From: a bacterium
Lineage (GTDB): Archaea; Nanobdellota; Nanobdellia; Pacearchaeales; GW2011-AR1
DNA: 64,000 bases
Assembly: GCA_036833455.1 (NCBI GenBank)
Contig: DAITPU010000002.1
Coordinates: 16,812 to 80,811, forward strand
Direction: 5' to 3'
In this document: in pieces, positions 29,829-47,223 of the stretch
Layout: every line of letters begins with the position of its first letter
Numbering within the stretch: position 1 is the first letter of the stretch
Notes under the pieces: model-generated
Databases searched by the model: none
Told to the model about the DNA's origin: nothing
The model's input: the letters and a program-made list of their open reading frames with translations, nothing else
Position numbers and translations under genes: made by a program

Positions 29829-30824
29829 CTAAAAGAAAATTATGAATCCTAAAACAATTATTATTAATTGGAAGAGATTAATTACAATAGGAACTTCCCA
29901 TTCGTAAGCTTTTCCTTTTATTTTCTTAAGAATAACTATTGCAAGGTGTTCTAATCCATATATCTTATCGTATCTTAAATCTAAACTTCCATCTTTTCTT
30001 ATTTTTCCAAAGCTTTCTTTTTTTAATTTCCCTCTTAATTTCAAAATAACTTCAAGAACATATGGAATAAAAAAGAAGATTGTTATTAATTCTACATTTC
30101 CAATTATGGCTATGCAAGCAATTAATGCCCCTACTGGATAAGTTAAAATGTCTCCTGGGAAAACTTTTGAAGGGTATTTATTAAATATCCAAAATGCAAG
30201 TAAACTTGCAACCATGCATGCAGAAATTAAACTTAACCAAGGATTTCCAGTTATAAAAGTCACTATTGAAAGTGCAGAAAGAAAAAGTATTCCTTGGCTT
30301 GCTTCCAATCCATTATATCCTGCTAAAAAATTAAATGTGGATGTTGCACCAACTATTCCTATCGGAACTAAAACAAGAGGAAACCACAATCCAAAATTAA
30401 TTCCTAAAATATTTGGATCCCCCAAATTTAAAACCATAATTGGAACTGCTGTGAAGATTAGAAATATTATTCTTGATCTATTGCTTAATCCTCTTTTCCA
30501 ACCTAATAAGTCATCGAAGATTCCTATAAATCCTGCAAGAGTTAAAACTCCCAAAATTGCGAGTATTTCTATTATGTGTGTTCTATCATCAAAAATAAAA
30601 GTTCTCAAAGCAATGTAAAGCATGATTGCGATTACGAATCCCATTAGAACTGCAATTCCTCCTCCCTCGGCAACTTCTCTTCCATCTAGCTTATGGATAT
30701 CTTTTCCCACTAATTTTTCTTCTTTTGCCCTTTTGATCCAAGCCGGAATAAATAAAACTGTTATTAAAAATGAAATCATAAGAATCGGTCCAAATAGAAA
30801 ACCTAAAAAAGTTAAATTATCCAT
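29829..30824 (-). CDS. aglH: Glycosyltransferase family 4 polyprenyl-phosphate HexNAc-1-P transferase (AglH/WecA/MraY-like)
   Basis: 10-11 TM, conserved DDxxG (IFDDLLGWKRGL) and NxxNxxDGxDGL-like region; heads the glycosylation locus. Confidence 0.7.
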   Translation of the reverse strand: MDNLTFLGFLFGPILMISFLITVLFIPAWIKRAKEEKLVGKDIHKLDGREVAEGGGIAVLMGFVIAIMLYIALRTFIFDDRTHIIEILAILGVLTLAGFIGIFDDLLGWKRGLSNRSRIIFLIFTAVPIMVLNLGDPNILGINFGLWFPLVLVPIGIVGATSTFNFLAGYNGLEASQGILFLSALSIVTFITGNPWLSLISACMVASLLAFWIFNKYPSKVFPGDILTYPVGALIACIAIIGNVELITIFFFIPYVLEVILKLRGKLKKESFGKIRKDGSLDLRYDKIYGLEHLAIVILKKIKGKAYEWEVPIVINLFQLIIIVLGFIIFF

Positions 30825-30863
30825 GGATTTTAATCAAAGCTCAAGTATTTAAATTTAATTACA

Positions 30864-31742
30864 CTAAAAAAAAGCAGGAGTTAAATATACTTCCATTATT
30901 GCTGCAATTATTAAAATTGATATTGCTAAAAATATTAAAAGGATCATATTTTCCAAAACATGATAAAATCTTTTTCCCCTAAATCCGTTTCTAATGATTC
31001 CAACTCCCAAAATTCCTCCAGCTAAAGCGGCTATGAAATAAGCCGCAATTTCAGGAACTCCGTGAAGCATGTATCTTGCCACTCCAAGTGGGATTTTACT
31101 TAGTTGATATTCACTAAATATTCCTATTGCTCCCGCAATTACACTTGCGTTCCAGGCTAAAATAAAAATTGCTCCTGCACCAAAAATTATTGAAAAAATT
31201 AGGGTGAAAATTAAAACATAAACATTGTTTTCTAGAATTAACATTAATCTTGATCCCTTTGTAATTCCTCCAGTTATTGATGAAGAAGATCCTCCCGAAT
31301 ATTGGTTGACACAATCTTCAACATTTGAAGGGTAATTTATTGAACAATAAGTTTCTATTTGGGCGTTAAGCAAATTGTGATCATGGAGAGCTATGTGCCA
31401 GAAAGAGAAGGCGATAACAAATCCAACGAAAAGCCATATAAGAGCATAAATGGCATCTTTATGAACTTTCCAAACATCTCTAAATCCCTCTATAACCTCG
31501 TCTCTTTTTTCTTCTTTCTTTATAATGTAATACATAAAAGGTAAGGAGAACATAACACAAAAAGTCACAACTATTAAACCTGAAAATTTAGACAAAACTT
31601 GGTCTTGAGTGAAAAAAAGATGGGCCAAAATTAAAGAAAGTGATCCGTAAAGTAACCCGACAAGTAACATTTTCCAGGGTGCTTTTTCTGCTCTTTTTGG
31701 ATTTATTAAGGCCTCTAACATATTTCTATTAGACCAAGACAT
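30864..31742 (-). CDS. Polytopic membrane protein, unknown function
   Basis: 292 aa, 6-7 TM. Confidence 0.4.
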   Translation of the reverse strand: MSWSNRNMLEALINPKRAEKAPWKMLLVGLLYGSLSLILAHLFFTQDQVLSKFSGLIVVTFCVMFSLPFMYYIIKKEEKRDEVIEGFRDVWKVHKDAIYALIWLFVGFVIAFSFWHIALHDHNLLNAQIETYCSINYPSNVEDCVNQYSGGSSSSITGGITKGSRLMLILENNVYVLIFTLIFSIIFGAGAIFILAWNASVIAGAIGIFSEYQLSKIPLGVARYMLHGVPEIAAYFIAALAGGILGVGIIRNGFRGKRFYHVLENMILLIFLAISILIIAAIMEVYLTPAFF

Positions 31743-31771
31743 TTTTTAAATGTTCTTTAATTTAAAATATA

Positions 31772-33136
31772 ATGGACTTTATTCATGAAGGAGGAAAAGA
31801 TTTGAAGGGTCTTTTTAATCGTTTTAAAAAAAGAGATTTTTCTGGAGATACCGGACAAACTATAAAAAATTCTAGCTATCAACTTGCTCAAAATTTAGTT
31901 TTTAAACTTGGAAGTTTAATTTTTACCATAATTGTTGCTAGAATATTACTTCCGGATTTAATGGGATTATATAACTTGGCTTTAACTACGATAATTTTAA
32001 TTTCTTCGTTTAGTGATTTGGGAATTGGGTCTGCATTAATTACTTTTTGTTCTAAAAATATTGGAAATAAAAAATATGGTAAAGCTAAAGGTTATTTGAA
32101 AAAACTATTTGAATGGAAGATTTATCTTCTATTAATTTCTTCTTTAATGATACTAGGGGGGGCTTATTTTATAAGTGAATTTTATTACCAAAAACCTATA
32201 TTTTATGCTCTTTTAGTTGGAGGAATTTATATTCCTGTTTTGGGTTTAATTGGGTTTTTTGAACAAGTTTTCAAATCTGAACAAAATTTTAGAATTCCTC
32301 TATTTAAAGAGATTCTTTTTCAAATTTCAAGGATGGTTATTGTTCCTTTAGCTATTCTCTTATTCATTAGTTCAAGTATTTCTCCAGAAAAATTAATTCC
32401 TGTCGTTTTATTATCTTTAATTTTTGCTTATTCTTTGAGCCTCCTATATTTATTTAAATTTTTGAAAAGAGTTAAATTTTTGAAAACGAAATCTGAAAAA
32501 TTGAACTCTTTGGAAATTAAAGAATTGAAGAAATTTATTTACCCTTTAAGTGCTACCGCAATGACTGGTTTGTTTTTTGGTTACACAGATACTTTGATGT
32601 TAGGTCATTTTATTAGTGCTAAATTTATTGCGTATTACATAGCTGCTTTTAGTTTAGTTGGGGGGGCTACTGCAATTATAGGATTTATGGCTTCGGCAAT
32701 GATCCCTATATTTGCAAGAAAACAAGGTAAAGAATTGGAAAATATTTTCAAAAAGACTCGAAATTTTAGTATTTTTATTTCGCTCTTGGCAGGTATTTTT
32801 ACTTATTTTGTTTCTTGGTATGTTGTTAAATTGACTTATGGTGTAGAGTATCTTCCTGCAAGCCAGGTTTTAAAATTGTTTAGTGTTTTGGTTTTCTTAT
32901 TGCCTATATCTGGGATATATGAAGGTTACTTTACAACTCAAAAAAGAACAAAAGAGCTTGCGATTTTGCTTGTTGGTAGCACAATTTTAAATGTTATTTT
33001 AAATTTTATTGGAATAACTTATGGTTTGAATAATTTTGGAGAAATGGGTGCTGTTTATGGAGCATGCTTTGCAACTATTTTAAGTAGGATTATATATTTA
33101 GGAGGGTTGGTTATTTGGAGAGGAAGAGTGTTTTGA
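31772..33136 (+). CDS. Oligosaccharide flippase (Wzx/MOP superfamily polysaccharide biosynthesis protein)
   Basis: 454 aa, ~12-14 TM, typical polysaccharide-biosynthesis-protein layout in glycan cluster. Confidence 0.65.
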   Translation: MDFIHEGGKDLKGLFNRFKKRDFSGDTGQTIKNSSYQLAQNLVFKLGSLIFTIIVARILLPDLMGLYNLALTTIILISSFSDLGIGSALITFCSKNIGNKKYGKAKGYLKKLFEWKIYLLLISSLMILGGAYFISEFYYQKPIFYALLVGGIYIPVLGLIGFFEQVFKSEQNFRIPLFKEILFQISRMVIVPLAILLFISSSISPEKLIPVVLLSLIFAYSLSLLYLFKFLKRVKFLKTKSEKLNSLEIKELKKFIYPLSATAMTGLFFGYTDTLMLGHFISAKFIAYYIAAFSLVGGATAIIGFMASAMIPIFARKQGKELENIFKKTRNFSIFISLLAGIFTYFVSWYVVKLTYGVEYLPASQVLKLFSVLVFLLPISGIYEGYFTTQKRTKELAILLVGSTILNVILNFIGITYGLNNFGEMGAVYGACFATILSRIIYLGGLVIWRGRVF

Positions 33137-33155
33137 GAATTTTATTTTTTTAAAT

Positions 33156-33740
33156 TTATAATAAATTTTCTTTTTTGAATTTTTCTTTTAAAAAATAAGC
33201 AACCGAATGTAAAATTAACATATGTAAATCTTCTACACACCCATAATGTTCTTTTGGGATGTGTATACTTAAATCTGCTAATTCTTTTAACATTCCCCCT
33301 TTAAAACCCGACAATCCTATAACAAATAATTTTCCTTCTTTTGCTGTTTTGACTGCTTTAATTATATTGGGAGAATTTCCACTTGAAGACACTGCAACCA
33401 GAATATCCCCCGGATTCATTAAATTTTTTAATTGTTCCGAAAATATGTTTTCATAACCCAAATCATTTCCATAAGCAGAAATTAAAGGTATATTTTCCGA
33501 AAGAGAATTCACCTTAAATCTTTTATTTTTATTTGAAAAAAAGTTATTGATTGTTCCTTTTCCCAAATCACAAGCAAAATGAGATGCAATGGACGCTGAA
33601 CCTCCATTACCTATAATGAATATATTTTTATCTTTAAAATAAGCCTCTTCTAGAAGGGATGCAAATTTTTCAATTGAATCTAGACTTATTGAATGAAAAA
33701 TTTCGTTGAATTCCTTAAAATAATCCTTTATCGATTCCAT
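33156..33740 (-). CDS. gmhA: SIS-domain sedoheptulose-7-phosphate isomerase (GmhA-like)
   Basis: IIGNGGSASIASHFACDLGKG and VAVSSSGNSPNI motifs of GmhA. Confidence 0.7.
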   Translation of the reverse strand: MESIKDYFKEFNEIFHSISLDSIEKFASLLEEAYFKDKNIFIIGNGGSASIASHFACDLGKGTINNFFSNKNKRFKVNSLSENIPLISAYGNDLGYENIFSEQLKNLMNPGDILVAVSSSGNSPNIIKAVKTAKEGKLFVIGLSGFKGGMLKELADLSIHIPKEHYGCVEDLHMLILHSVAYFLKEKFKKENLL

Positions 33741-34718
33741 TTAAATTTCATAAATAATTTTTGAACCTTCCTTTTCAAATTCTATTTTAAACTCCTTTAG
33801 ATGAGATAAACTCTCTCTTAATTTTTCCTGGAATTTTTTTTCACAATAAAATAAGATAAATCCTCCTCCTCCTGCTCCCAATACTTTTCCTCCTGATGCT
33901 CCCGCGGATAATCCTTTATCATATATTTCATCAATAAATTTATCCGAAATAGAATTTGTTAACTCCCTTTTAATTTTCCAACTTTCTCCCAATTTTTTCC
34001 CAAAATTTTCTAAATTGTTATTTTCTAGATCTTCCTTCATTTTTAGCGTTATTTCTTTTAACTTTTTTAAAGATTCAAATTTTTCTACTTTAGACTCTAT
34101 TTCAGAAGATTGTTCTTTTAAAATATCTGAAGCATTTCTTACTTTATTTAAATAAAAAAGAACCAAATTATTTTGAATTATCTCTTTATTTTTTTCTGAA
34201 ATATTTAGGGGAGATATTTCAACCGAATCATCTTCATTAAACTTAATAAAATTAAATCCTCCAAATGCAGCTGCATATTGATCTTGTTTTCCAATTGGTT
34301 CTTTTAAATTTTTTATTTCTATTTCGCAAGCTTTTTCAGCAAAAAACCTTTTTGATTTTTTCTCACGATTAAAATGGCAGATTAAATTAATTAAACCAAC
34401 TGTAAAAGAGCTACTAGATCCAAGTCCTGTGCCATGAGGGACTTCTCCAATTGAATATAATTCAAATCCTTTATCTAACTTAAGTTCCTTAAATGCTTCT
34501 TTTACCCTAGTATTTTTTATTTGATTTATTGAATCAACAATTTCCGTTATATTGTAATGAATTTTATAATTCCCTTCAAAAGATTTGTGCCCAATTAAAT
34601 GAACATACTTATTTATGCTCGTGCTAATTACACAACCATATTCCCTTTTATAAAAAGAAGGTAAATCTGTTCCCCCTCCAAAAAAACTAATTCTTAAAGG
34701 AGTTCTTGAAATAATCAT
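33741..34718 (-). CDS. hddA: GHMP sugar kinase, D-glycero-D-manno-heptose-7-phosphate kinase-like (HddA)
   Basis: RTPLRISFFGGGTD N-terminus and GTGLGSSSS ATP motif; adjacent to gmhA. Confidence 0.65.
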   Translation of the reverse strand: MIISRTPLRISFFGGGTDLPSFYKREYGCVISTSINKYVHLIGHKSFEGNYKIHYNITEIVDSINQIKNTRVKEAFKELKLDKGFELYSIGEVPHGTGLGSSSSFTVGLINLICHFNREKKSKRFFAEKACEIEIKNLKEPIGKQDQYAAAFGGFNFIKFNEDDSVEISPLNISEKNKEIIQNNLVLFYLNKVRNASDILKEQSSEIESKVEKFESLKKLKEITLKMKEDLENNNLENFGKKLGESWKIKRELTNSISDKFIDEIYDKGLSAGASGGKVLGAGGGGFILFYCEKKFQEKLRESLSHLKEFKIEFEKEGSKIIYEI

Positions 34719-34762: not shown

Positions 34763-35458
34763 ATGAAAGCTTTACTTTTATCTGCCGGATTTGGAACTAG
34801 ATTATCTCCCCTTACAGACAAAATTCCTAAAGTGATGGTTCCAATTAACAAAAAACCTTGTATTGAATATTGTATAGAAAATTTAAAGAAACAAGGGATA
34901 AAAGAGTTTTTAATAAATACCCATTATCTACCTGAAGAAATTAAAAAGTATTTTGGCAATGGAAAAAAATTTGGAATTAAAATAAATTATTCTTTTGAAA
35001 AGCAAATTTTAGGGACAGCTGGTTCTCTAAATAATTTTAAAACTCAACTTAATGAAACATTTTTAGTTGTATGCGCAGATGTTCTTGCAAATTTTAATAT
35101 TAAAAAAGCAATAAATATTCATAAAAAAAACAAAGCGGATATTACCCTCTTTTTAGATAAAAAAAGAAGTTTTAAAGATAAAGGTTTAGTAATAAAAGAA
35201 AAAAATCTTGTTAAAATGTTTGTCGAAAAACCTCAAAAAAAAATCTCTAAAGCATATATTAATTCTGGATTTTATATTGTAGAGCCAAGTATATTATCTG
35301 AAATTCCCCCTGGATTTTATGACTTTGGAAAAGATTTATTTCCTAAAATTATCAATAAGAAAAAAATTTGTTGTGTAGACCACGAAGGGTATATTTTTGA
35401 TATTGGAACCTTAGAAGATTTAAAAAAAGCAGAAGAATTTCTACAAAAGAATTTATAA
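34763..35458 (+). CDS. hddC: Sugar-1-phosphate nucleotidyltransferase (HddC/GDP-heptose pyrophosphorylase-like)
   Basis: MKALLLSAGFGTRLSPLT nucleotidyltransferase signature, 231 aa. Confidence 0.65.
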   Translation: MKALLLSAGFGTRLSPLTDKIPKVMVPINKKPCIEYCIENLKKQGIKEFLINTHYLPEEIKKYFGNGKKFGIKINYSFEKQILGTAGSLNNFKTQLNETFLVVCADVLANFNIKKAINIHKKNKADITLFLDKKRSFKDKGLVIKEKNLVKMFVEKPQKKISKAYINSGFYIVEPSILSEIPPGFYDFGKDLFPKIINKKKICCVDHEGYIFDIGTLEDLKKAEEFLQKNL

Positions 35459-35480
35459 AAAGTAGATAATACTTAATCTT

Positions 35481-36590
35481 ATGAAAATTTGTTTTGTATT
35501 GCCAGGGATGACTAAAACTGGAGGGGTTCAGTATATTTTTGAGATATGTAATAAATTGAAAAAAAGAGGGTATGATGTATCTATAGTTTCTTTAGGAAAT
35601 TATAGAAAAAAATGGTTTGATTTGAATCACGAGATAAATATAATTTTGCCTGAAAAAAAATACTCTATTCTTCTTCCATTTAAAGGGTATGTTTCTTTAA
35701 CTTCAATTTTAAATAAATTATTTAAAATTTCTAATCTTCCCTACAAGATAGATTTATCTCGTATTTTGGCAAACGCAATACCTCCTTCAGATGTAGTTAT
35801 AGCTACAGCGTATAATACTGCTTATTCTGTTTTTTTAAGTGAATCTAAAAAGAAATTTTATTGCATTCAACATGATGAATCTACTTTTTCTAAAGACCAA
35901 TTAGAAATTAATATTGCAAAAAATAGCTACCTTTTACCTCTAAAACAATTTGCTGCTTCTAGGTGGATAGTTAAAAGAATAAATTTAATAGGAGGCCAAA
36001 ATCCAATTTACTTAATGAATCCTGTGGATGCAAAAACATTTTGTTTAAAATCAAAAAAAGAAAACATGAGTGTTATGGGTTTTTTAAGAGGGATAGAGTG
36101 GAAAGGGGATGATGATATGCTAAAGGCTTTTGAAATAGTTAATAAGAACATCAAAGACGTTAAATTTAATATTGTTGATCCAAAAGGATTATTGCAAAAA
36201 AAAATGAAAAAGTTAAAAATTAAATTAAATAAATTTGAAGTTTTAGGCAAACATAATAAGGAAGAACTTTCTCAATTTTATTCCAAATCAGAAATTTTTG
36301 TTTTTGCTTCACATTTAGAAGGTTTTGGATTGCCCCCTTTAGAAGCAATGGCTTGTAAATGTGCCGTAGTTATGACTGATTCTGGGGGAATAAATGATTA
36401 TGGAAAACATGAAAAAAATTGCTTAATAAGCAAACCAAAAGATTATAAATCCCTTGCAAATAATATTATTAAGTTACTTAAAGATGAAGAATTTAAGAAA
36501 AAAATAGGAAATGAAGGTCTTTTAACTGCAAAAAAATTAAGTAAATGGGATCAAGTGATAAATACGTTGGAAAAAGAATTTAAAAAATGA
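35481..36590 (+). CDS. Glycosyltransferase family 4 (GT-B)
   Basis: EGFGLPPLEAMACKCAVV motif. Confidence 0.7.
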   Translation: MKICFVLPGMTKTGGVQYIFEICNKLKKRGYDVSIVSLGNYRKKWFDLNHEINIILPEKKYSILLPFKGYVSLTSILNKLFKISNLPYKIDLSRILANAIPPSDVVIATAYNTAYSVFLSESKKKFYCIQHDESTFSKDQLEINIAKNSYLLPLKQFAASRWIVKRINLIGGQNPIYLMNPVDAKTFCLKSKKENMSVMGFLRGIEWKGDDDMLKAFEIVNKNIKDVKFNIVDPKGLLQKKMKKLKIKLNKFEVLGKHNKEELSQFYSKSEIFVFASHLEGFGLPPLEAMACKCAVVMTDSGGINDYGKHEKNCLISKPKDYKSLANNIIKLLKDEEFKKKIGNEGLLTAKKLSKWDQVINTLEKEFKK

Positions 36591-37654
36591 AAATAATAAA
36601 GAGATTTAAAAAAGGTATGTTTTTGGCAATTTCTGCACCAAAAAATATTTTCTTTCGAAGAACATCTCGTCCTTTATATCCTGAATTTATGGTCTTTGAA
36701 ATAACAAGTTTATGTAATTCAAGATGTACCCATTGTAGTATTTGGAAACATCCTGGAAATATTAAAGAAGAGATTACAAGAAAAGAAATAAAAAAAGCCC
36801 TTCAGGATAAAGTATTCAAAAAACTTAAATTTGTTTTAATTACGGGGGGAGAGGCCTTATTAAAAAAAGATTTAAAGGAAATTATTCATGATATGAATGA
36901 AATATTTCCAGGGATACACATTTACTTAAGTACAAATGGATTGCTACCGGATAAGGCGATAGATTTGATTAAATTTTCAAAAGAAAAAGGAATTAATATA
37001 GGTATTGGGATTTCTTTAGATGCGTTAGGAGAAAAACACGATTTAATAAGAGGTGTTCCTGGAAATTTTAAAAAAATAGAATATTTGTTAAAAGAATTAG
37101 TAAAAATTAGAGAAAAATATGGTTGTGACATGCCTATTGGGTTGGGATTTACTTTATCTAAATATACCGCTAAAGATTATATTGCTGTTAAAAAATATGC
37201 AGAAAAATTTGATGTTGGTTTTTTAAGCCAGACCTATAATGAAGCAGAATATTACAAAAATGACTTAAAAGAAAAAGATAAAAAAATTGATTCTCAAGGG
37301 AACGAGGAACTTATAAATGTAATCAATCAGTTACCTGCCTCTCTATTAAAAAAACTTTCCATAAAATCTTTAAAAGGAGAGAATATGAAATTTTCTTGCT
37401 ATGCTTTACAAAAGTTTTTTCTTTTAAGACCCAATGGAGATGTTGCACCCTGCTTGAACTGGTGTAACTCTACTATTGGCAACATTAAATATAATTCCCC
37501 TTCAGAAGTTTGGAAAAGTAAAAAAGCTAAAGAAGTTAGGAAGAAGATTTTAAAATGTGATGGCTGTTTAAATGATTGGTGCACAAATAAAAGTTTTGAA
37601 GCTTCCTTTTATCCCATGATTCCTTATTACCTAAGGAAATTGATTCAAAAATGA
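36587..37654 (+). CDS. Radical SAM enzyme with C-terminal SPASM/twitch Cys-rich domain
   Basis: CNSRCTHC (CxxxCxxC) near N-terminus; C-terminal CYALQ...CLNWCNS...CDGCLNDWC cysteine cluster. Confidence 0.7.
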   Translation: MKIIKRFKKGMFLAISAPKNIFFRRTSRPLYPEFMVFEITSLCNSRCTHCSIWKHPGNIKEEITRKEIKKALQDKVFKKLKFVLITGGEALLKKDLKEIIHDMNEIFPGIHIYLSTNGLLPDKAIDLIKFSKEKGINIGIGISLDALGEKHDLIRGVPGNFKKIEYLLKELVKIREKYGCDMPIGLGFTLSKYTAKDYIAVKKYAEKFDVGFLSQTYNEAEYYKNDLKEKDKKIDSQGNEELINVINQLPASLLKKLSIKSLKGENMKFSCYALQKFFLLRPNGDVAPCLNWCNSTIGNIKYNSPSEVWKSKKAKEVRKKILKCDGCLNDWCTNKSFEASFYPMIPYYLRKLIQK

Positions 37655-37659: not shown

Positions 37660-38292
37660 TTATTTTATTAACTCTTTTTTAAAATATAATCTATATGATA
37701 ATTTGGGAAAATAATATGTTAAGTACCCAAATAAAAAACAAATAATTTGAGAGATTAATTCCGGGGAATATTTGTAACTTCCATTGTCTCTTTTTAAAAA
37801 CTTAAATCCGTCAATTCCATAAACTTTATATCCTAATTCTCTTAATTCGTCTGTTTCCCATCCTGAAATATGTTTTTCTTCGGGATTATCCTCTTTTGTA
37901 GGGTGTAAATCAATCATTAATCCATTTGGAGTAGTCAAAATGACTTTATTAATAGCGACTCTTTCCATTTCATTTAATAAATTTAATCCATCTTCTTTTG
38001 ATAAATGTTCTATAACTTCTGTGCAGATAATAACTTCAAATGAATTTTCTTGAAAAGGCAATTTTCTAGTAATATCGTGTAAAAGGTATTTATTATGTAT
38101 TTTTTCTGATTTACTTTTATTAATATAAGGTTCATAATAATCTATTCCAACAGAATAGATGGGCCTATTAATTCCTTTTAAAATGGAATCTCTTCCGCAT
38201 CCGACATCTAATACAGATTTTACATTTTTTAATTCTTTCTCAATTAAATTTTTTGTTCTAAATTTTCTTTTTATTGATCTTGGAGGCTTCAT
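37660..38292 (-). CDS. Class I SAM-dependent methyltransferase
   Basis: VLDVGCGRDSIL motif I. Confidence 0.65.
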   Translation of the reverse strand: MKPPRSIKRKFRTKNLIEKELKNVKSVLDVGCGRDSILKGINRPIYSVGIDYYEPYINKSKSEKIHNKYLLHDITRKLPFQENSFEVIICTEVIEHLSKEDGLNLLNEMERVAINKVILTTPNGLMIDLHPTKEDNPEEKHISGWETDELRELGYKVYGIDGFKFLKRDNGSYKYSPELISQIICFLFGYLTYYFPKLSYRLYFKKELIK

Positions 38293-39149: not shown

Positions 39150-39753
39150 TTTCCAACTCCATAATTAATGTTTGATTAAAAAAACTTTTATTTTTAAATG
39201 GAAAATAATTTGTCCACCTAAATTCAGGAAAATCAGAGCAATATTTTATTTTCTTTATTTTTACATTAGAGGGTAAAACCTTCTTAAAAGAACTTAATTT
39301 CCAATGATGCAAGTGAGAGGTTAATTCTACCGGGGGGTTTTCTAATTTTGGAAATAACCTGTAAAGAAAAAAATTAAGATTGGGTATTGATACTATGCAT
39401 TTATTTGTATGTTTAAAGGCATCTCCTAAAATTTTTTGGGGATTCTCTAAATGTTCTAAAACATCTGCAAAAATTATATAATCAAATTTTTCTTTAAATG
39501 GGAAGTTATTAGATTTAGTTACTTTCCTGTATTTGAAATTTTTATGTTTAAAATCGGATTTATTTATTAAATCGCAACCTATAACTTTTGCATTCTTTCT
39601 TTCAATTAATATTCTTGATAAATCTCCTTGCCAACATCCAAAATCAAGAACTTTACTATCTTTTTCTATTAAACCTGCAATTTTAAAATACTTAGGTAAG
39701 GTTTTGGAATTATTAATTAATTTTCTCCTTATTTTTTTAATTAAAATTTTCAT
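39118..39753 (-). CDS. Class I SAM-dependent methyltransferase
   Basis: VLDFGCWQGDLS motif I, ADVLEHL motif. Confidence 0.6.
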   Translation of the reverse strand: MKILIKKIRRKLINNSKTLPKYFKIAGLIEKDSKVLDFGCWQGDLSRILIERKNAKVIGCDLINKSDFKHKNFKYRKVTKSNNFPFKEKFDYIIFADVLEHLENPQKILGDAFKHTNKCIVSIPNLNFFLYRLFPKLENPPVELTSHLHHWKLSSFKKVLPSNVKIKKIKYCSDFPEFRWTNYFPFKNKSFFNQTLIMELENEDMRDSYLV

Positions 39754-40439
39754 TCCTTCCTCCTATATTCTTGTTTTCCTTTGAAAAAAGCTTTCCAAAA
39801 TTCTTTTCCGTATGAAAAAGGATACATAAAGCACAAAATTAATGCTTTAAACCATTTAGGATTTTTAATCCCCCATCTTCTGAATAAAGCTCCATTTATA
39901 CTTCCATTCTGTTTCTTTTTTTCAATAGTTTTGTTTCCTTTGTAATTTGGATGCATATGTAAAAGTCCGGTATTGACTTTAATTATTTTTCCTCTCTTCT
40001 TTAATTTTAACCAAAGATCAACATCTTCTCCTCCAGTAAAAAAAGTTTTCTCATCAAAAAATCCGACTTTTTCTAAAATAGATTTTCTAAATGCGTTGAA
40101 TTTCCCATCCGGTGCAAAAGGATAATACTTTTTTCTTACGTCTTCTTCCATAATCCATGAATAAGTTAAAACAACTTCTTTATTTTTAAAGGGTTTAATT
40201 AATTTTTTAATAGAATCTTTTTCTAAAGGAATACAGTCTTGATGAAGAGTTATTATTATATCTCCTTTTGATTTTTTTATTCCTTCATTATATGCATTTG
40301 AAAGTCCTTTTGTTCCTTGAATCTCAATTATTTCTATTCCTTCTGCATTTTGTTTCAAATAATCTTTTAATCTCGAATAAATTTCTTTTTTAGGTTTATA
40401 TAATGGGATTATTATAGATATCTCTTTTCTATTTTTCAT
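39750..40439 (-). CDS. Glycosyltransferase family 2
   Basis: ISIIIPLYK...LSNAYNEG...LHQD GT-A pattern. Confidence 0.65.
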   Translation of the reverse strand: MKNRKEISIIIPLYKPKKEIYSRLKDYLKQNAEGIEIIEIQGTKGLSNAYNEGIKKSKGDIIITLHQDCIPLEKDSIKKLIKPFKNKEVVLTYSWIMEEDVRKKYYPFAPDGKFNAFRKSILEKVGFFDEKTFFTGGEDVDLWLKLKKRGKIIKVNTGLLHMHPNYKGNKTIEKKKQNGSINGALFRRWGIKNPKWFKALILCFMYPFSYGKEFWKAFFKGKQEYRRKE

Positions 40440-41530
40440 TTCCTTGCTTCCTCATAAATTTTTTTCAATTTTTTATTTCTTTCTTTAATAGAAAACTTTC
40501 CTTCTTTAATAACTTTTATGCAATTTTTAGATATCTTTTCTCTAAGAGATTTATTTTCTATTAATTTTGAAGTAGATTTTACTAAATTATTTATTACCTC
40601 TTCTTCTCTTTTTCCTATTTTTTTAAAGTCTAGAGGTTTTCCAACTTCAAGGATGAAACCAGTTTGATTATTTTCAATTATTTCTTTTCGCGACATTGTC
40701 CATTCAGTATTGATGGTTATTATTGGTAAACCAAAAGCCATTGCTTCTAATAATGAGAAACCGAATGTATCTACTGAGCTAGGATACAAGAATAAATCTG
40801 AGCTTTCTAATAATTTGCATAATTCCTTATGAGGCATTAAACCATGAATTTTTAGTTTAGGGTATTTTTTCTTTAAATTTTCAGAAACATTTGAGATTAC
40901 TATTCCTTCAATTTCGTATTTTTTCCTTAATTTTTCTAAAACCTCTAGAGCTATTAACCCTCCTTTAATATCAAAATATCTCGCAACAAATATTATTCTT
41001 AATTTTTTGTTTTTTGGTTTTTTCAGATCTTTTATTTCAGGTACTGTAGGATATACTACCTCTATTTTTTTTTCTATTTCCGGATAAAATTGGATTAATT
41101 CTCTTTTTATTGAATTTGTCCAAGGAATTATTTTTTTACAGTTTTTTCTTAAAAGTATTTTTTTTATTTTCTCTCTTCCTTTTTTTGTTTCTCCTCCAGA
41201 AATCGCTAAAGAGGGCAACATTTCTACATCTGCAACCCAAGGTTTATCTTTATTTTTTGATAAACAATGGGCACAATGTATTAAATCATAATTTCCTTTG
41301 GGGCTTAAATGTGCATTTGGTATATTGAAATTAAACTTATTTGTGCATCTACGAATATTTCTCTTCAAAAAATTTGAAAACCAAAAAAATCTTTTATTTG
41401 TAATCACTCCTTTTTGCTTTTTAGTATTTAGGTATTCGATTCCTTTCGGATGATCTTCTAAAAGATATTTGTAGTAAGGACTATCTGGAAATTTCCAAGG
41501 ATATTGTAGATATATTTTTATTGGATCCAT
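40436..41530 (-). CDS. Glycosyltransferase family 4 (GT-B)
   Basis: FGFSLLEAMAFGLPII motif. Confidence 0.65.
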   Translation of the reverse strand: MDPIKIYLQYPWKFPDSPYYKYLLEDHPKGIEYLNTKKQKGVITNKRFFWFSNFLKRNIRRCTNKFNFNIPNAHLSPKGNYDLIHCAHCLSKNKDKPWVADVEMLPSLAISGGETKKGREKIKKILLRKNCKKIIPWTNSIKRELIQFYPEIEKKIEVVYPTVPEIKDLKKPKNKKLRIIFVARYFDIKGGLIALEVLEKLRKKYEIEGIVISNVSENLKKKYPKLKIHGLMPHKELCKLLESSDLFLYPSSVDTFGFSLLEAMAFGLPIITINTEWTMSRKEIIENNQTGFILEVGKPLDFKKIGKREEEVINNLVKSTSKLIENKSLREKISKNCIKVIKEGKFSIKERNKKLKKIYEEARK

Positions 41531-41566: not shown

Positions 41567-42580
41567 GTGGAAAAGAAAAATATTTTTATTACTGGTGTGG
41601 CTGGATTTTTAGGAAGCCATTTGGCAGAGGCTTTAATTAAAGAAGGCCATAACGTTTCAGGATGCGATAGTTTAATTGGAGGTTATATTGATAATATCCC
41701 TGATGGAGTAGATTTCCATCAAGTAGATTGTAAATACCTTAATACGATGAAAAAATTATTAAAAGGGGTTGATATTGTTTATCATTGTGCTTGTACTGCA
41801 TACGAAGGGTTAAGTGTCTTTTCTCCTCATTTAGTTTGTGAAAATACCGGACAAATAACCGTTACTGTTGCAACTGCTGCAGCAGAAAATAAAGTTAAGA
41901 GATTCGTTTATTGTTCTAGTATGGCAAGATATGGAGTTCAAGATAAAATTCCTTTTACTGAAGACATGATTCCAAAACCTCAAGATCCTTATGGAATTTC
42001 TAAACTTTATTCAGAGAAAATTATAAAGAATTTATCTGAGGTACATGGAATGGAATATGTAATTGCAGTTCCACATAATATTATTGGACCAAAACAAAAA
42101 TATGACGATCCTTATAGAAATGTGGCTTCAATAATGATTAACTTGATGCTTCAAGGAAGGCAACCGATCATTTACGGAGATGGTGAACAAAAAAGATGTT
42201 TCTCTTTTGTTCAAGATGACATTGATTGCTTAGTGAAATTAGGATTTCAAGAAAATGTTATAGGAGAAATCATTAATATTGGTCCAGATGAAGAATTTGT
42301 AACAATTAACGAATTAGCAAAAAAAATTGCAGAATTATTGGATTTTAATTTAAAACCTATCTATAAAAAAGGTAGACCGCAAGAAGTTAAATTGGCTACT
42401 TGTTCAGCGAATAAAGCAAGAAAGCTTTTAGGTTATGAAACGAAAACTTCCTTAGAAGAAGGATTAAAAGAAATGATTGAATATATTAAAAAGAGAGGGA
42501 CAAAACAATTTAGGTACCATTTAGCTTTGGAAATAATTAATGAAAAGACTCCTGAAACATGGAAAGATAAATTATTTTAA
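41567..42580 (+). CDS. NAD-dependent nucleotide-sugar epimerase/dehydratase (SDR family)
   Basis: ITGVAGFLGSHL Rossmann motif, YxxxK (YGISKLY). Confidence 0.75.
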   Translation: MEKKNIFITGVAGFLGSHLAEALIKEGHNVSGCDSLIGGYIDNIPDGVDFHQVDCKYLNTMKKLLKGVDIVYHCACTAYEGLSVFSPHLVCENTGQITVTVATAAAENKVKRFVYCSSMARYGVQDKIPFTEDMIPKPQDPYGISKLYSEKIIKNLSEVHGMEYVIAVPHNIIGPKQKYDDPYRNVASIMINLMLQGRQPIIYGDGEQKRCFSFVQDDIDCLVKLGFQENVIGEIINIGPDEEFVTINELAKKIAELLDFNLKPIYKKGRPQEVKLATCSANKARKLLGYETKTSLEEGLKEMIEYIKKRGTKQFRYHLALEIINEKTPETWKDKLF

Positions 42581-43431
42581 TTTTTATAAGGGAACTCTAT
42601 TTTAACTTTTTTTCTATTTAGATACCCTTCTTTATATGCATTGAATAAATCTTTAAAATAAATCTTTTTTCTTGCTCTGAATGAATCCGTTAAAAATCTG
42701 AGAATAAAACCTAAAAGAAGGTATTTAGAAAAAAATCTTGCACGATTTTTATAAAAAACCAAATTAAAATTTATTCTTTTTTCTTTCTTTGAATCTTCAC
42801 CTCCCTTGTGAAAGAAAATAGATTTCGGAGAATGTATTATTTTAAAACCTTTTTTTATCATTCTTTTCTCCCAATCTGATTCTTCATAATAAATAGGGGA
42901 ATACATTTCGTCCAATAAACCAACTTTCTTTATTGCTTCTTTTTTTACTAAAAAACCTGCTCCTGAAACCCAACCAACTTCTTTTTCTTTGTTTCCCCAA
43001 TAATACTTCACTCCAAATGCATTTATCCAACCTGCGGAAATTGCTGGTTTTTTTTCAAAAGTAAATTGTTTTGAGCCAACTATTCCAACATATCCATATT
43101 TCTCAGAAGTTTTTACTGCTTCATTTAACCAATTTTTTTCTACAAGAGTATCATTGTTTAATAAATAAAAATAATCTGAATTGAAATTTTTTATTGCATA
43201 TTTTATTCCAGAATTATTTGCTTTAGAAAAACCTTCATTATTTTTATTTTCTATTATATCTACCCAATTATACTTTGATTTAATCATTTCTTGCGTCCCA
43301 TCATTAGAACCATTATCAACAAGAATAACATTATAATTTTTATAAGAAGTATTTTTTTTAATTGAATTCAAACAATTTTTTGTATATCTTTTTCCATTTA
43401 AATTTATGATGATTATTGAAACATGCTTCAT
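42577..43431 (-). CDS. Glycosyltransferase family 2
   Basis: VSIIIINLNG...VDNGSNDGT GT-A pattern. Confidence 0.7.
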   Translation of the reverse strand: MKHVSIIIINLNGKRYTKNCLNSIKKNTSYKNYNVILVDNGSNDGTQEMIKSKYNWVDIIENKNNEGFSKANNSGIKYAIKNFNSDYFYLLNNDTLVEKNWLNEAVKTSEKYGYVGIVGSKQFTFEKKPAISAGWINAFGVKYYWGNKEKEVGWVSGAGFLVKKEAIKKVGLLDEMYSPIYYEESDWEKRMIKKGFKIIHSPKSIFFHKGGEDSKKEKRINFNLVFYKNRARFFSKYLLLGFILRFLTDSFRARKKIYFKDLFNAYKEGYLNRKKVKIEFPYKN

Positions 43432-43432
43432 T

Positions 43433-44566
43433 TCATCTCCTTAAAATCTCCGCTATTTTTTTACTAACTCCTACTTCTCCATATGGATTTTTGAAATTTT
43501 TTATTTTAAATTTGGGATCTAAATATTCTTCTATTTTTTGTTTTGTTTTTTCAACATCTAATTTAGAAAGAAACTGAAAATTTGTTTCTAAACCCTCTTG
43601 CCTTTCAGTTGCCATTCTTAAAACCACACAAGGTTTGCCAAAAATTAAAGATTCCTCTTGCATTGAACCTCCATCGCAAACTATAAGAGAGCATTTAGAA
43701 ATTTGAAAAATAAATTCTGGATAATCTAACGGAGGTAAAATGTTTATTTTTTTATTTTCCATTAGTTTTTTATAAAGTCCAAATTCTTTTAATTTTTCCT
43801 CTGTATTTGAATGCATCGCAAAAAAAGAAGTTATCGGAATTGAATTTAAAATATCTACAATTTTTGAAAGTCTTTCTTTAGATTTTAAATTTTCATGCCT
43901 GTGGACTGTAATTAAGGCAAACTTTCCTGAATATAATTTTTTTATCTTCTTTTTCTTAGCTAATTCTAATGCATAATTGGCTGAATCAACAATTGTGTTT
44001 CCAACTACGTGCAATTCTTTGAATTTTTTTCTTCTTAAATTGTATTTTGAAAATTCAGAAGGAGCGAATAAAACTTTTGAAAAGGTTCCTGCTATTCTTC
44101 GAGAAATTTCTTCTGGAAAAGGCTCAAAAATATTAAAACTTCTTAGCCCAGCTTCTAAATGAACATTTTTGTATTTTTTGAATAAATTAAATAATCTAGA
44201 AGAAGCGAAAGAAGCAGAGGCCGTAGTCATAGTATCTCCGTGATATAAAACATATTTAAGGGATTTTAATTTTTTCAAATTTCTTCGTATTTTAAATATT
44301 AATTTTAAATTCCAAAAAATGGCTTTTCTTTCATTTGAATTAAACTTAGAAGACTTTTCTGGTTCTTTTGACAAAATTATATCCGGTTTTTTTACTCCAA
44401 ATTTTTCACATAAATCTCCTAATGAATGCTGTCCCGTATGTATAAAATAATAAGAAATTTTTCTCTTTTCAAATTCTTTCATCAAAGGAAATGTCTTTAT
44501 TAGCTCCGCCCTTGTTCCGATTATTATTGCAAACTCATAATCTTTCATTTTAAATTTGATTGGCAA
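43433..44566 (-). CDS. wecB: UDP-N-acetylglucosamine 2-epimerase (non-hydrolysing, WecB-like)
   Basis: IIGTRAELIK...HTGQH N-terminus and overall 377-aa length typical of WecB/MnaA. Confidence 0.7.
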   Translation of the reverse strand: MPIKFKMKDYEFAIIIGTRAELIKTFPLMKEFEKRKISYYFIHTGQHSLGDLCEKFGVKKPDIILSKEPEKSSKFNSNERKAIFWNLKLIFKIRRNLKKLKSLKYVLYHGDTMTTASASFASSRLFNLFKKYKNVHLEAGLRSFNIFEPFPEEISRRIAGTFSKVLFAPSEFSKYNLRRKKFKELHVVGNTIVDSANYALELAKKKKIKKLYSGKFALITVHRHENLKSKERLSKIVDILNSIPITSFFAMHSNTEEKLKEFGLYKKLMENKKINILPPLDYPEFIFQISKCSLIVCDGGSMQEESLIFGKPCVVLRMATERQEGLETNFQFLSKLDVEKTKQKIEEYLDPKFKIKNFKNPYGEVGVSKKIAEILRR

Positions 44567-44589
44567 ATTAATTATTTAAAGATATAGTT

Positions 44590-47223
44590 TTATTTTTTAA
44601 TGAATTCCAAATTGTCCAATTCTCCGAAAATTCCGTCAGTTGCTAAAAATTCTTGATTAATTAGTATTTCTTCTGTTGGAGTAAATTTATAGATATTAAT
44701 AGGCCCATTAAATCCTCCATAATTAAAATTAAAAGGATATGTGCTTTGGGAATTTACTAGTTCTAACTCAGGATATTCTTCAAGCGGATCTCCTAATAAA
44801 TAAAGTTTAACTACTAAACTATCTTTTATTTTAGGTGAAAGATAAATTAAAGCTCCATCCATATCTAAGTTAGGCCCAGAGGAAGCCCCATAAACATTAG
44901 GATAGATATATGCTCCTGCCTCGAATCCTCTTCCAAAATCAATATAATCCCCCATAGTTGAAAGGTATCTCAAAGGTACTTGATATTGTTCTCCATTTAA
45001 ATAATAAACTCCGACTGGTTGATTATAGCCTTCACTTCCTTTTGAAACAATGAATCCTGCAACTATAGCTTTATTTTTTGGAAAATATACTTTCTTTCCA
45101 TCAAATTCGTAAAAGAAATCTTCATCCACATAAATTCCTCCCTGATAATATCTAATAGTTGAATTCGCTGTTTCTTGCGTTGTTTTTGGATCAGAAACGA
45201 AACTTACTAAAGCTGAAGCTCTATCTGAAGAATCATTATCGTCCGCTATAGAAGAGTACGCAGAATATTTCCCTATATCTGTTGGATCGATTAGAAGATA
45301 TGAAACGTTATGGGTTTTCATGTAACTCTTTGCTATTTCTGGACGAGGAGTAGTTAAAACATATCGTGCAATCAAGTGGTCCCAATATCCATTAAAATGT
45401 CCTCCGTCTGTAAGGGTTGCCCTTTTACCTCCTGTTTGAACCCAATATCCGTAGTCCCACCAATGCAAAAATATTGCATCTTCAGAAGTATTTTCTCTAA
45501 CCCAAGCCATAGATTTTTGCCAATCGGAATTATAAGGGGGTGTGCTGTACTTAGCTTGCGCAAAAGAGGCTTTTCCGAAGTTCATAGAAGCGAAAATTAA
45601 ATTTATTAATAAAAATAAAATTAAAGCGACTAAAAATATTTTTAACAAATCATCTTTTGATTTTCTTAGATAAGAATATAATTCAAATAACAATAAAACT
45701 GAAATTAAAGTCACAAAAGGGACTATAACAAAAAATACTCTTATTGCAGATCTAACGGATAAAATCATAACTATTGCAATTATTCCCAAAAAAATCCATT
45801 TTAAATCTACTTTCCATTCAGATTTATTGTAAATATAAATAGAACAAACTAAAAATAAAAAAAATCCTAAAAAGAAAAAAGCTTTACTTATGAAATTTTC
45901 TCCATTAAAAATAGAGGAAGAAGAAAATCTTGAAAATAACATTCCGGAAATGAAAAGAATAAAACTTAAGGAAAATAAGTAATGTAAATTCTTTTTAGAT
46001 ATTCCTTTAGAAATTTGATATCCTATTGCAAAGCATCCTAAGAAAAAACTCCAAAAAAGAGTTTTACCAAGCTGAGCGATTAAATCTGTTAAATAAGGTT
46101 GCCTGTTTTCAGCAACTGTTAAACCAACTCTTCCAGTTCCAAAAGGAGTTATTATTGTTCGCAATAAATTAAAAACCATTTCAAAAACATGGCCCACGAA
46201 AATCTGATAAAATAAAATTCCTGCAACAATTGTTAATCCAAAGGAAATTAATCTAGGATTTTTTTTAATTCTTTCATCAAGATTAGAATATTTTTTTAAT
46301 ATTAATTCAAAACCGGCATAAAAAAGAGCAAAAAAAGTTAAAATTCCAGATATTCCCAACATATATCCTTCCAAAATTCCCTTTGGAGAATAATTAAAAA
46401 TAAAACTAGAAACTAAAGTTCCTAATATAAAAAATAGATAGAATAAAAAGTTTTGAAGATGATTTTCTTTTTTATTAAGAAACCAATTTAAAAAGAATAA
46501 AAGAGGCAAAATCATAAACAAATATTTTCCACTTCCTCCCCAAGAAGTAATAGAAAACATTGTAAAAAAACCAGCAATTAAACCGTATAAAATAGACTTA
46601 GTCAAATTTATTTTTTTTTCTTGCACTCGAGAAAATAGCCAATAAAATATTAAGAGTGCTAGAAAAAATCCGAACATTCCAAATGAATCGTGATCTGAAG
46701 AACCAACTAAATTTCTATAAAGATAAGGAGGTAAAATTGAAACTAAAAAAGAGGCAAAGAGTGCTAACCATTTATTTTTTGTTACTAAATAAAATAAAAA
46801 GAAAAAAGCTATTAGGCCCATAAGAAAAAAGATTAAAGGACTCATTACATTTGCGTACATTAAAGTTCGAGATCCATCAAGGGAATTTATTATCTTATAT
46901 AAAATAGCTACTGCATAAGGCATTGTTTCTGGAGAGAAAGCTGGATTTAAAGTAGGATAACGCATTAAATCTATTTCAGGGTACTTCCAATTATTTTCTA
47001 ATAAAACTTGAGAGTGCCTCAAAAAATAATAAGAATCTAAATCTAAAGGAGTATAATCTTCTGTAGTTGAATCTATTAAGTTTGGAAGAGTTTGCAATCT
47101 TATCCAACTAGACAAAATTAAAATTCCTAATGCTAAGATGATAAAAATTGCCCACTGAACTCGCTTATCTAAAAAAAATTTTTTTGTTTTATTTAGATAT
47201 TCTTTAGCTTGACTCTTCATCAA
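44590..47223 (-). CDS. aglB: Archaeal oligosaccharyltransferase AglB (STT3 family)
   Basis: 13-TM N-terminal domain and WWDYGYW catalytic motif; 877 aa. Confidence 0.85.
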   Translation of the reverse strand: MMKSQAKEYLNKTKKFFLDKRVQWAIFIILALGILILSSWIRLQTLPNLIDSTTEDYTPLDLDSYYFLRHSQVLLENNWKYPEIDLMRYPTLNPAFSPETMPYAVAILYKIINSLDGSRTLMYANVMSPLIFFLMGLIAFFFLFYLVTKNKWLALFASFLVSILPPYLYRNLVGSSDHDSFGMFGFFLALLIFYWLFSRVQEKKINLTKSILYGLIAGFFTMFSITSWGGSGKYLFMILPLLFFLNWFLNKKENHLQNFLFYLFFILGTLVSSFIFNYSPKGILEGYMLGISGILTFFALFYAGFELILKKYSNLDERIKKNPRLISFGLTIVAGILFYQIFVGHVFEMVFNLLRTIITPFGTGRVGLTVAENRQPYLTDLIAQLGKTLFWSFFLGCFAIGYQISKGISKKNLHYLFSLSFILFISGMLFSRFSSSSIFNGENFISKAFFFLGFFLFLVCSIYIYNKSEWKVDLKWIFLGIIAIVMILSVRSAIRVFFVIVPFVTLISVLLLFELYSYLRKSKDDLLKIFLVALILFLLINLIFASMNFGKASFAQAKYSTPPYNSDWQKSMAWVRENTSEDAIFLHWWDYGYWVQTGGKRATLTDGGHFNGYWDHLIARYVLTTPRPEIAKSYMKTHNVSYLLIDPTDIGKYSAYSSIADDNDSSDRASALVSFVSDPKTTQETANSTIRYYQGGIYVDEDFFYEFDGKKVYFPKNKAIVAGFIVSKGSEGYNQPVGVYYLNGEQYQVPLRYLSTMGDYIDFGRGFEAGAYIYPNVYGASSGPNLDMDGALIYLSPKIKDSLVVKLYLLGDPLEEYPELELVNSQSTYPFNFNYGGFNGPINIYKFTPTEEILINQEFLATDGIFGELDNLEFIKK

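Follow-up and report, generated by a model that had tools for sequence, protein, structure and literature searches.

An archaeal N-glycosylation island with a candidate heptose-activation cassette and a radical SAM enzyme predicted to act on a sugar

Which glycan might be built by an aglB-linked gene island of a DPANN archaeon, and what a radical S-adenosylmethionine (SAM) enzyme would do within such an island, are the questions raised by a locus in a 64-kb stretch of archaeal DNA (contig DAITPU010000002.1; ~28% G+C), hereafter called the window, which belongs to a metagenome contig of 161 kb (ENA ERZ724101 NODE_25). Archaeal N-glycans are chemically the most diverse known, and those of DPANN archaea, whose surfaces mediate host attachment, are essentially undescribed. 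The locus comprises 17 contiguous, back-to-back open reading frames (ORFs) at 29829-47223, all of them at the coordinates given in an initial annotation of this DNA, and it probably represents an N-glycosylation (agl) island of an uncultured Pacearchaeota-like DPANN archaeon, with a proposed glycan pathway that would include a radical SAM step. Islands linked to aglB, methylated sugars in archaeal N-glycans and one heptose, in Thermoplasma acidophilum, are kinds already known (PMC11407970). New here are a recognisable heptose-activation cassette in an agl island, the DPANN host, and an uncharacterised module of a radical SAM enzyme and a family 4 glycosyltransferase (GT4) that is common to many anaerobic bacteria.

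Searches against Pfam and NCBIfam recognised glycan-biosynthesis domains in 16 of the 17 ORFs (Table 1). The contiguous N-glycosylation locus from an initiating transferase to AglB that the initial annotation had claimed was thereby borne out, and the domains of its flippase, five glycosyltransferases (two GT4 and three GT2), two methyltransferases, short-chain dehydrogenase/reductase (SDR) and WecB were all found. The 17th ORF encodes a SpoIIM-like membrane protein, which that annotation had left unlisted. The island is flanked by housekeeping genes, with aIF-2B and prefoldin on one side and SecDF on the other, and the flanking regions further encode ribosomal proteins L1 and L10 and an Rpb3-type subunit of RNA polymerase; because the flanks are of this kind, the annotated island boundaries are right. 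The AglB assignment is supported by its catalytic motifs, namely DLD61, DHD177, TVAE369 (TIXE-type), WWDYG at 588-592 and DIGK649, and a crude hydrophobicity scan predicts about 13 transmembrane segments. With 102 bits against TIGR04154, the archaeosortase-A-associated STT3 family (cut-off 450), the protein is classified by sequence as a generic AglB outside that subfamily. Its relatives, at 53-58% identity, occur in metagenome-assembled genomes (MAGs) of Pacearchaeota and "Nanoarchaeota", and the closest named relatives of the island's GHMP kinase likewise come from MAGs of Candidatus Pacearchaeota and "Nanoarchaeota" (53-57% identity for the named relatives of the two proteins), which would place the host among the DPANN archaea of this group. 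Among solved structures, the initiating enzyme is nearer to human DPAGT1 (6bw6 and 5lev; E ~2e-13) than to MraY (1.6e-5), which fits an AglH/Alg7-type N-acetylhexosamine (HexNAc)-1-phosphate transferase and agrees with the AglH-like label it had been given.

The organisation of the island was compared with that of related loci. In total, 46 loci with a relative of the radical SAM gene were recovered from GTDB species representatives, nearly all of them MAGs, and neighbours were mapped in 34, using phmmer with the window proteins for labels and Pfam for recurrent unlabelled neighbours. Two of these loci (L002/L003) represent the cluster of a related archaeon, which lies at the matching site between aIF-2B and SecDF and contains the heptose cassette. 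Fourteen of the 17 island genes have their best match in that cluster, with two weak (GT2b and MT1, at 24-31% identity), so the grouping of the island is not due to chance; identities of the L002 orthologs are 46% for the AglH-like transferase, 51% for the SpoIIM-like protein, 44% for the flippase, 51% for GT2a and 70% for GT4b. The SpoIIM-like ortholog adjoins the AglH-like gene in L002/L003 and lies near it in L133. In three relatives, AglB orthologs (57%, 58% and 53% identity) keep the site, beside SecDF or beside aIF-2B/SpoIIM/AglH, and the accompanying glycosyltransferase sets differ, with one to several methyltransferases per locus and with a B12-binding radical SAM gene, an aminotransferase with SDRs, or a CMP-sugar synthetase as extras in one locus each. 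The combined heptose and radical SAM cassette is confined to the window and L002/L003 among the relatives compared. Since related genomes hold different gene sets at one chromosomal site, the locus is a hypervariable agl island, a type already described for haloarchaea and Sulfolobales (PMC11407970).

Whether the product of this island is moved to protein has to be weighed against what is found in bacteria. Heptose cassettes and the unit of radical SAM, GT4 and MT1 genes occur in bacterial loci without an oligosaccharyltransferase gene (L008, L009, L029 and L040), AglB is present in just 2 of the 34 mapped radical SAM loci, and the island genes are spread over both strands and several transcription units, all of which would suit a cluster that, in part or as a whole, builds a Wzx-dependent surface polysaccharide or glycolipid not moved to protein, the aglB neighbourhood being a general glycan island. 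We consider this unlikely, as domain scans found no Wzy-type polymerase, chain-length regulator or export machinery in the cluster, and as AglH and AglB bracket the island, a bracket that encloses the same cassette in L002/L003 and other content in L133. Moreover, archaeal agl genes typically cluster with aglB (PMC11407970).

As an N-glycosylation island, the locus can be set beside the aglB-linked cluster of Haloferax volcanii, with its methyltransferase AglP and flippase AglR, and beside AglH and AglB of Methanococcus. With characterised agl clusters it shares linkage to aglB, an initiating transferase, several soluble glycosyltransferases, a flippase candidate, nucleotide-sugar enzymes and a SAM methyltransferase, as well as gene content that varies strongly between relatives (PMC11407970). 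Unlike these clusters, it has a DPANN host and contains a GmhA/HddA-type heptose cassette and a radical SAM enzyme, neither of which was found for any characterised agl cluster in a literature search. The unusual glycan chemistry predicted in the initial annotation stands in so far as heptose is rare in archaeal N-glycans, and is qualified by the precedent of Thermoplasma acidophilum, a member of another phylum with heptose in its N-glycan, for which the passage of PMC11407970 gives the structure and names no biosynthetic genes; methylated sugars are likewise known from archaeal N-glycans.

The heptose cassette consists of a SIS-family isomerase, a GHMP kinase and a sugar-1-phosphate nucleotidyltransferase. 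The initial annotation had held that assignment of the kinase or nucleotidyltransferase to a different sugar pathway by profile would speak against heptose. For the kinase, the HddA model of NCBIfam gave 171.7 bits and the next family 72.8 bits, and PDB comparisons agreed, with E values of 5e-43 to 2e-36 for heptose-7-phosphate kinases (3k85, 4n3o and WcbL 4usk), 1.5e-11 for fucokinase and ~1e-9 for galacto- and mevalonate kinases. Overall, the kinase scores about 100 bits better against heptose-7-phosphate kinases than against fuco-, galacto- or mevalonate kinases, and its relatives carry the JGI name heptose-7-phosphate kinase. The SIS protein is nearest to GmhA in both NCBIfam and the PDB (Campylobacter jejuni GmhA 1tk9, E 2e-31) and keeps the motifs GNGGSA, GND.G and S-S-G-N-S-P-N. 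The combination of a GHMP-type kinase and a PF00483 transferase characterises the alpha-anomer (GDP) route, whereas HldE serves in the ADP route. The GDP-heptose genes of the initial annotation are thus upheld for the HddA-type kinase, and the isomerase is nearest to GmhA at a score below the cut-off of that family, whereas HddC, and with it GDP, was not established: the nucleotidyltransferase scored 140 bits with ManC-like, 140 with MurU and 104 with HddC models of NCBIfam, and, in the PDB, 100-128 bits with ManC/UGPase-like enzymes and 65 bits with HddC 5xhw. The term GDP is used for it by analogy.

In a further sample, made up of 45 metagenome loci that are 8 kb or longer and contain a homologue of the window kinase (hereafter HddA loci), most show the nucleotidyltransferase ortholog upstream of the kinase and GmhA downstream, and this shared order supports a common pathway. 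Orthologs of the nucleotidyltransferase, at 100-144 bits, directly precede the HddA-like kinase in most of these loci and also in L002, L008, L009 and L040. The common operon in the HddA loci (L052-L130) has the order SDR, nucleotidyltransferase, GHMP kinase, GmhA, and linkage to the heptose genes is far more frequent for an SDR than for the phosphatase. The established pathway to GDP-D-glycero-alpha-D-manno-heptose (GmhA-HddA-GmhB-HddC) is that of Aneurinibacillus thermoaerophilus, Campylobacter jejuni, Yersinia pseudotuberculosis and Burkholderia (WcbL). The window shares with it the clustering of a SIS isomerase, a GHMP-type kinase closest to the WcbL/HddA structures and a PF00483 nucleotidyltransferase. 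It differs in having no linked GmhB, in a nucleotidyltransferase no closer to HddC than to ManC/MurU, and in its setting of archaeal N-glycosylation in place of a bacterial capsule, S-layer glycan or lipopolysaccharide.

Several features of the same proteins weigh against a heptose product. WecB is the only island protein that reaches a curated equivalog cut-off of NCBIfam (210.15 bits for TIGR00236); GmhA (117 of 209 bits) and HddA (172 of 600) are divergent and fall below theirs, as does the nucleotidyltransferase, which profiles do not separate from ManC/MurU-like enzymes and which prefers those models over HddC. The SIS protein has HFACDL and VEDLH where C. jejuni GmhA has HFAAEL and IQEMH, so that Asp and Glu replace the aligned Glu and Gln. 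In addition, gmhB, which had been noted as not visible in the cluster, is missing on the larger scale as well, as tblastn found no GmhB-like phosphatase of the haloacid dehalogenase (HAD) superfamily in the whole window (best E = 0.36). It is therefore conceivable that the heptose branch is incomplete, or that its divergent enzymes act on another phosphosugar, with no heptose in the glycan; we give this only a slim chance, somewhat below that of a glycan not moved to protein. The preference of the kinase for heptose kinases over any other GHMP kinase speaks against it, as does the wide conservation of the trio of nucleotidyltransferase, kinase and GmhA, in which a HAD gene lies near the kinase in only 10 of the 45 HddA loci and is lacking in 35, so that an unlinked phosphatase is the usual state. 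Moreover, the orthologous cluster of L002/L003 has a GmhB-like HAD gene with a DRDGVIN motif between kinase and nucleotidyltransferase, and gmhB mutants of Escherichia coli are only partly heptose-deficient.

The remaining question is what the radical SAM protein does. Its gene overlaps the stop codon of GT4a, the glycosyltransferase gene before it, by 4 nt (ATGA, read from the sequence), and its 3' end lies 5 nt from the convergent methyltransferase gene MT1, the intervals in this neighbourhood measuring 22 nt, the 4-nt overlap and 5 nt. Every ORF of 20 or more residues near the gene falls within a larger gene, and the gaps contain no small ORF. A precursor-peptide gene therefore has no room here, which agrees with the earlier remark that no obvious peptide substrate gene is nearby. 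A search of 5.8 billion proteins gave about 90 relatives at 33-59% identity, none of them specifically named, and a family profile matched 1815 representatives of 50%-identity clusters at E <= 1e-30, which suggests a family of roughly a thousand or more such clusters. A close member (P0250; 792 residues, 434 bits) has an apparent LAGLIDADG/intein-type insertion before or within its radical SAM domain.

In a 40-sequence alignment, the invariant cysteines are C43, C47 and C50 of the CX3CX2C motif for the SAM cluster and, in the C-terminal part, only C271, C289, C324 and C327 (C-X17-C ... C-X2-C), so that four cysteines are conserved there and not the seven of a SPASM domain with two auxiliary clusters. 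Twitch is the name of a shortened SPASM domain with a single auxiliary cluster (PMC9012708), and the C-terminal domain here is by its cysteine pattern Twitch-like, with one auxiliary-cluster motif. The label radical SAM/SPASM in the initial annotation therefore holds for the radical SAM core and the PF13186 match, and does not extend to a full SPASM domain. No NCBIfam family reaches its cut-off for the protein (best NirJ1, 75 of 650 bits), and its best PDB sequence match is SkfB with 40 bits. The AlphaFold2 model (mean predicted local distance difference test score, pLDDT, 93) matches the folds of SkfB, anSME, BlsE, SuiB, MoaA, DesII and EpeE.

Members of the family have kept a characteristic company. 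Their loci span at least 10 phyla, with bacterial hosts in Saccharibacteria, Omnitrophota, Elusimicrobia, Gammaproteobacteria, Thermodesulfobacteriota, Spirochaetota and others, and archaeal hosts that include Micrarchaeota, Woesearchaeota and Bathyarchaeia. A GT4 gene, of the GT4a type or a longer one of 450 residues, directly adjoins the family member in 25 of the 34 mapped loci and is at most two genes away in 29; a Wzx-type flippase occurs in 14, often directly upstream, and B12-binding radical SAM genes occur in 5. MT1 orthologs (153-164 bits) follow the radical SAM gene directly in L006, L009 and L040, and L009 and L040 also carry the nucleotidyltransferase, GHMP kinase and GmhA, so that six genes (those three together with radical SAM, MT1 and GT4a) are common to the window, a Saccharibacterium (L009) and a member of the Syntrophaceae (L040). 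The stable unit is the radical SAM gene with a GT4 gene. In a crude ordering by unweighted pair-group averaging (UPGMA), the window groups with L002 and L018, and then with L006, L040, L009 and L008.

Gene fusions point the same way. A class I methyltransferase (P0252, 429 bits) and a B12-binding radical SAM protein (P0248, 437 bits) are each fused to a full-length family member, and distant relatives at 190-230 bits are fused to GT2 (P0303, P0306 and P0368) or GT4 (P0359) domains; P0379 (1764 residues) and P0380 (1941 residues) combine GT2, GT4 and two radical SAM/SPASM units, and we know of no description of any of these six giant glycosyltransferase fusions. The methyltransferase of P0252 was considered as an ortholog of MT1 or MT2 and rejected, as it shows generic class I similarity only (E 2.4 and 0.002), and the recurring theme around the family is methylation in general and no one particular enzyme. 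Because of the GT4 adjacency and the fusions to glycosyltransferases and methyltransferases, the substrate would be a glycan or a glycan precursor; a glycan substrate is well supported by this genomic context, and the conserved GT4 and Wzx neighbours thus strengthen the earlier suggestion that the enzyme may act on a sugar. One bacterial polysaccharide cluster with a family member also has, at 3336-5570 of L004, a second radical SAM/SPASM gene of another kind that immediately precedes a sulfatase gene, resembling an anSME-sulfatase pair.

That the protein matures peptides or proteins (SPASM-type; anSME- or sactisynthase-like), or acts as a cofactor enzyme (NirJ/AhbD/MoaA-like), and only happens to lie inside the island, as its top NCBIfam and fold hits (NirJ/Ahb, SkfB, anSME, SuiB and MoaA) and the SPASM domain reported by Pfam might suggest, is very improbable in view of NCBIfam scores far below the cut-offs, the single conserved auxiliary-cluster motif, the lack of a precursor ORF and of intergenic gaps, the translational coupling to GT4a, the GT4/Wzx neighbours kept across more than 30 loci, the fusions of members and relatives to methyltransferase, GT2 and GT4 domains, and the lack of heme, molybdopterin and sulfatase genes in domain scans of the island. 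Judged by its sequence, the protein is not a peptide maturase, and it is predicted to bind one SAM cluster and one four-cysteine auxiliary cluster.

For the chemistry of a sugar-acting enzyme, comparison can be made with the carbohydrate-acting radical SAM enzymes BtrN (butirosin), DesII, BlsE, NeoN and AprD4, of which DesII and BlsE are among the fold matches. The auxiliary cluster of BtrN is held by Cys169, Cys187, Cys232 and Cys235. BtrN and the window protein share a radical SAM core with a shortened SPASM domain, a single four-cysteine site by sequence pattern and a carbohydrate context; unlike BtrN, to which it has no detectable sequence relationship, the window protein is encoded in primary surface-glycan clusters beside GT4 and Wzx genes, and not in an antibiotic pathway. 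To our knowledge, no radical SAM enzyme has been linked to the N-glycan of Thermoplasma acidophilum. BtrN itself performs a two-electron, sugar-like oxidation (PMC9012708). A literature search for radical SAM enzymes in connection with nucleotide sugars, polysaccharides, heptose or glycosyltransferases returned nothing relevant, and a radical SAM protein of the C. jejuni HS:19 capsule cluster (PMC8743553) was set aside as a superficial parallel only.

Two groups of results count against extending this picture to a heptose-specific, BtrN-like enzyme. The first concerns the partner sugar. Heptose genes (the nucleotidyltransferase-kinase-GmhA trio, whole or in part, with or without a HAD gene) lie within 10 kb of the radical SAM gene in L002/L003, L008, L009, L012, L016, L017, L021, L029, L040 and L042, and in L041 the trio adjoins a truncated radical SAM match at a contig end. 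By count, however, a heptose gene of any kind occurs in only 9 of the 34 mapped loci, and adding three unmapped loci gives about 10 of 37; about two thirds of the radical SAM loci show none. The closest archaeal outgroup, a Woesearchaeota locus (L018), pairs GT4a and the radical SAM gene with two B12 enzymes, next to AglH and AglB, and has no heptose genes. None of the 45 HddA loci carries a gene of this radical SAM family, and the idea of an obligate partner of heptose operons was rejected on this ground. The second concerns the reaction: neither the PDB sequence hits nor the top 50 Foldseek hits include BtrN, and TM-scores of the model to all solved enzymes are just 0.5-0.63, so the proposed chemistry is argued from the cysteine pattern alone.

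The analysis shows gene content, families, motifs, synteny, neighbour counts and fusions; with these points taken into account, a pathway can be proposed in which we infer which sugars and which nucleotide are used, how the steps follow one another and what the radical chemistry is. The AglH/DPAGT1-like enzyme would place HexNAc-1-phosphate onto dolichol phosphate, and up to five glycosyltransferases (two GT4 and three GT2) would extend the glycan at the cytoplasmic face. Donors would include UDP-ManNAc, made through WecB, and nucleotide-activated D-glycero-D-manno-heptose. For the latter, sedoheptulose-7-phosphate would be converted by GmhA, by the HddA-type kinase, by a phosphatase whose gene lies elsewhere and by the nucleotidyltransferase next to the kinase. 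The SDR would epimerise or dehydrate one of the donors. The radical SAM enzyme may abstract a hydrogen from the sugar that GT4a handles, whether that sugar is still in the donor or already in the lipid-linked intermediate, after which an electron could pass to the auxiliary cluster to give a keto-sugar (an oxidation of the type proposed for BtrN), or a hydrogen could be returned to the opposite face to give an epimer. In this subclade heptose would be its probable target, with MT1 methylating the product afterwards, and the two class I methyltransferases would O-methylate sugars. Finally, the Wzx-type protein would flip the completed lipid-linked glycan, and AglB would move it onto Asn of secreted proteins.

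On a wider scale, we tentatively suggest, without holding it to be the likelier outcome, that the radical SAM enzyme and its partner GT4 form a widespread, undescribed glycan-tailoring module of anaerobic bacteria and archaea for radical sugar modification during surface-glycan assembly (keto-sugar formation, epimerisation or deoxygenation), often followed by methylation, which here might yield a modified, methylated heptose on N-glycoproteins; for any single one of these chemistries the chance is much smaller. For a heptose-containing, methylated N-glycan, the island supplies a defined set of genes that can be tested, and, if the proposal is true, it would involve enzyme chemistry of a type not yet known for protein N-glycosylation in any domain of life. 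Knowing the reaction of the radical SAM enzyme would reveal a new radical step in glycan biosynthesis and would improve the annotation of surface-polysaccharide clusters in candidate-phyla bacteria and archaea.

Table 1. Predicted genes of the agl island in their order along the window.
Predicted product	Position	Strand	Best evidence
AglH-like polyprenol/dolichol-phosphate HexNAc-1-phosphate transferase (initiating)	29829..30824	-	PF00953, 101 bits
SpoIIM-like multi-pass membrane protein, role unassigned	30864..31742	-	PF01944, 54 bits
Wzx/MATE-type lipid-linked oligosaccharide flippase	31772..33136	+	PF01943, PF13440, PF01554
SIS/GmhA-like sedoheptulose-7-phosphate isomerase	33156..33740	-	TIGR00441, 117.5 bits (cut-off 209)
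HddA-like GHMP kinase (D-glycero-alpha-D-manno-heptose 7-phosphate 1-kinase)	33741..34718	-	NF049969, 171.7 bits
Sugar-1-phosphate nucleotidyltransferase, inferred heptose-1-phosphate type	34763..35458	+	PF00483, 145 bits
GT4a glycosyltransferase	35481..36590	+	PF00534, 111 bits
Radical SAM enzyme, Twitch-like domain	36587..37654	+	PF04055, 69 bits; PF13186, 35 bits
MT1, class I SAM methyltransferase	37660..38292	-	PF08241, PF13649
GT2a glycosyltransferase	38325..39149	-	PF00535; TIGR01556 (rhamnosyltransferase-like), 96 bits, below cut-off
MT2, second class I SAM methyltransferase	39118..39753	-	PF07021, PF13489
GT2b, short GT2-family protein	39750..40439	-	PF00535, 46 bits
GT4b glycosyltransferase	40436..41530	-	PF00534, 68 bits
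Extended SDR nucleotide-sugar epimerase/dehydratase	41567..42580	+	PF01370, 163 bits
GT2c glycosyltransferase	42577..43431	-	PF00535, 87 bits
WecB, UDP-GlcNAc 2-epimerase (makes UDP-ManNAc)	43433..44566	-	TIGR00236, 231.5 bits; PF02350, 210 bits
AglB/STT3 oligosaccharyltransferase, 877 residues	44590..47223	-	PF02516, PF21436

Among the remaining island proteins, the SDR has a LegB-like 4,6-dehydratase as its best NCBIfam match (135 bits, below cut-off) and UDP-hexose and UDP-GlcA 4-epimerases and GDP-mannose 3,5-epimerase as its best PDB matches. A sugar donor for GT4a was sought through solved structures, which gave generic GT4/PglA-like matches only. GT2b is 229 residues long, and its PF00535 match begins at profile position 45, so the protein may be a degenerate GT2 or be missing the first strand of its nucleotide-binding fold; its counterpart in L002 has 288 residues and 24% identity.

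Candidate substrates of AglB are also encoded in the window. An NHL-repeat beta-propeller protein of 995 residues (20173-23160, minus strand) and a beta-propeller protein of 456 residues with a dockerin domain (16455-17825, minus strand) both have a hydrophobic N-terminus and are likely secreted surface proteins; N-X-S/T sequons number 6 and 7 in the two proteins and are not enriched.

Further observations concern the surroundings of the island. Beside aglB in relatives, toxin-antitoxin-type genes are found in L132 (6960-7855 and 3692-3961) and L133 (7287-8266), which are HepT-like with a nucleotidyltransferase and ParE-like, and which fit the island as a hotspot of gene insertion. Genes for tRNA-Gly, tRNA-Arg, tRNA-Leu and 5S rRNA are packed at 50239-51221, beyond SecDF, and a tRNA-Phe gene (27816-27887) lies on the other side, ~2 kb from the island. 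At the end of the window, positions 56000-64000 have a G+C content of 0.36-0.40, compared with 0.25-0.32 in the remaining window, and most ORFs there had no Pfam or PHROG match; this segment could be a foreign element that has integrated, or could mark a junction of binning or assembly. It includes an ORF that ends in a LysM domain (62968-63747, minus strand) and another with a weak match to a phage membrane-protein family (60303-61442, minus strand).

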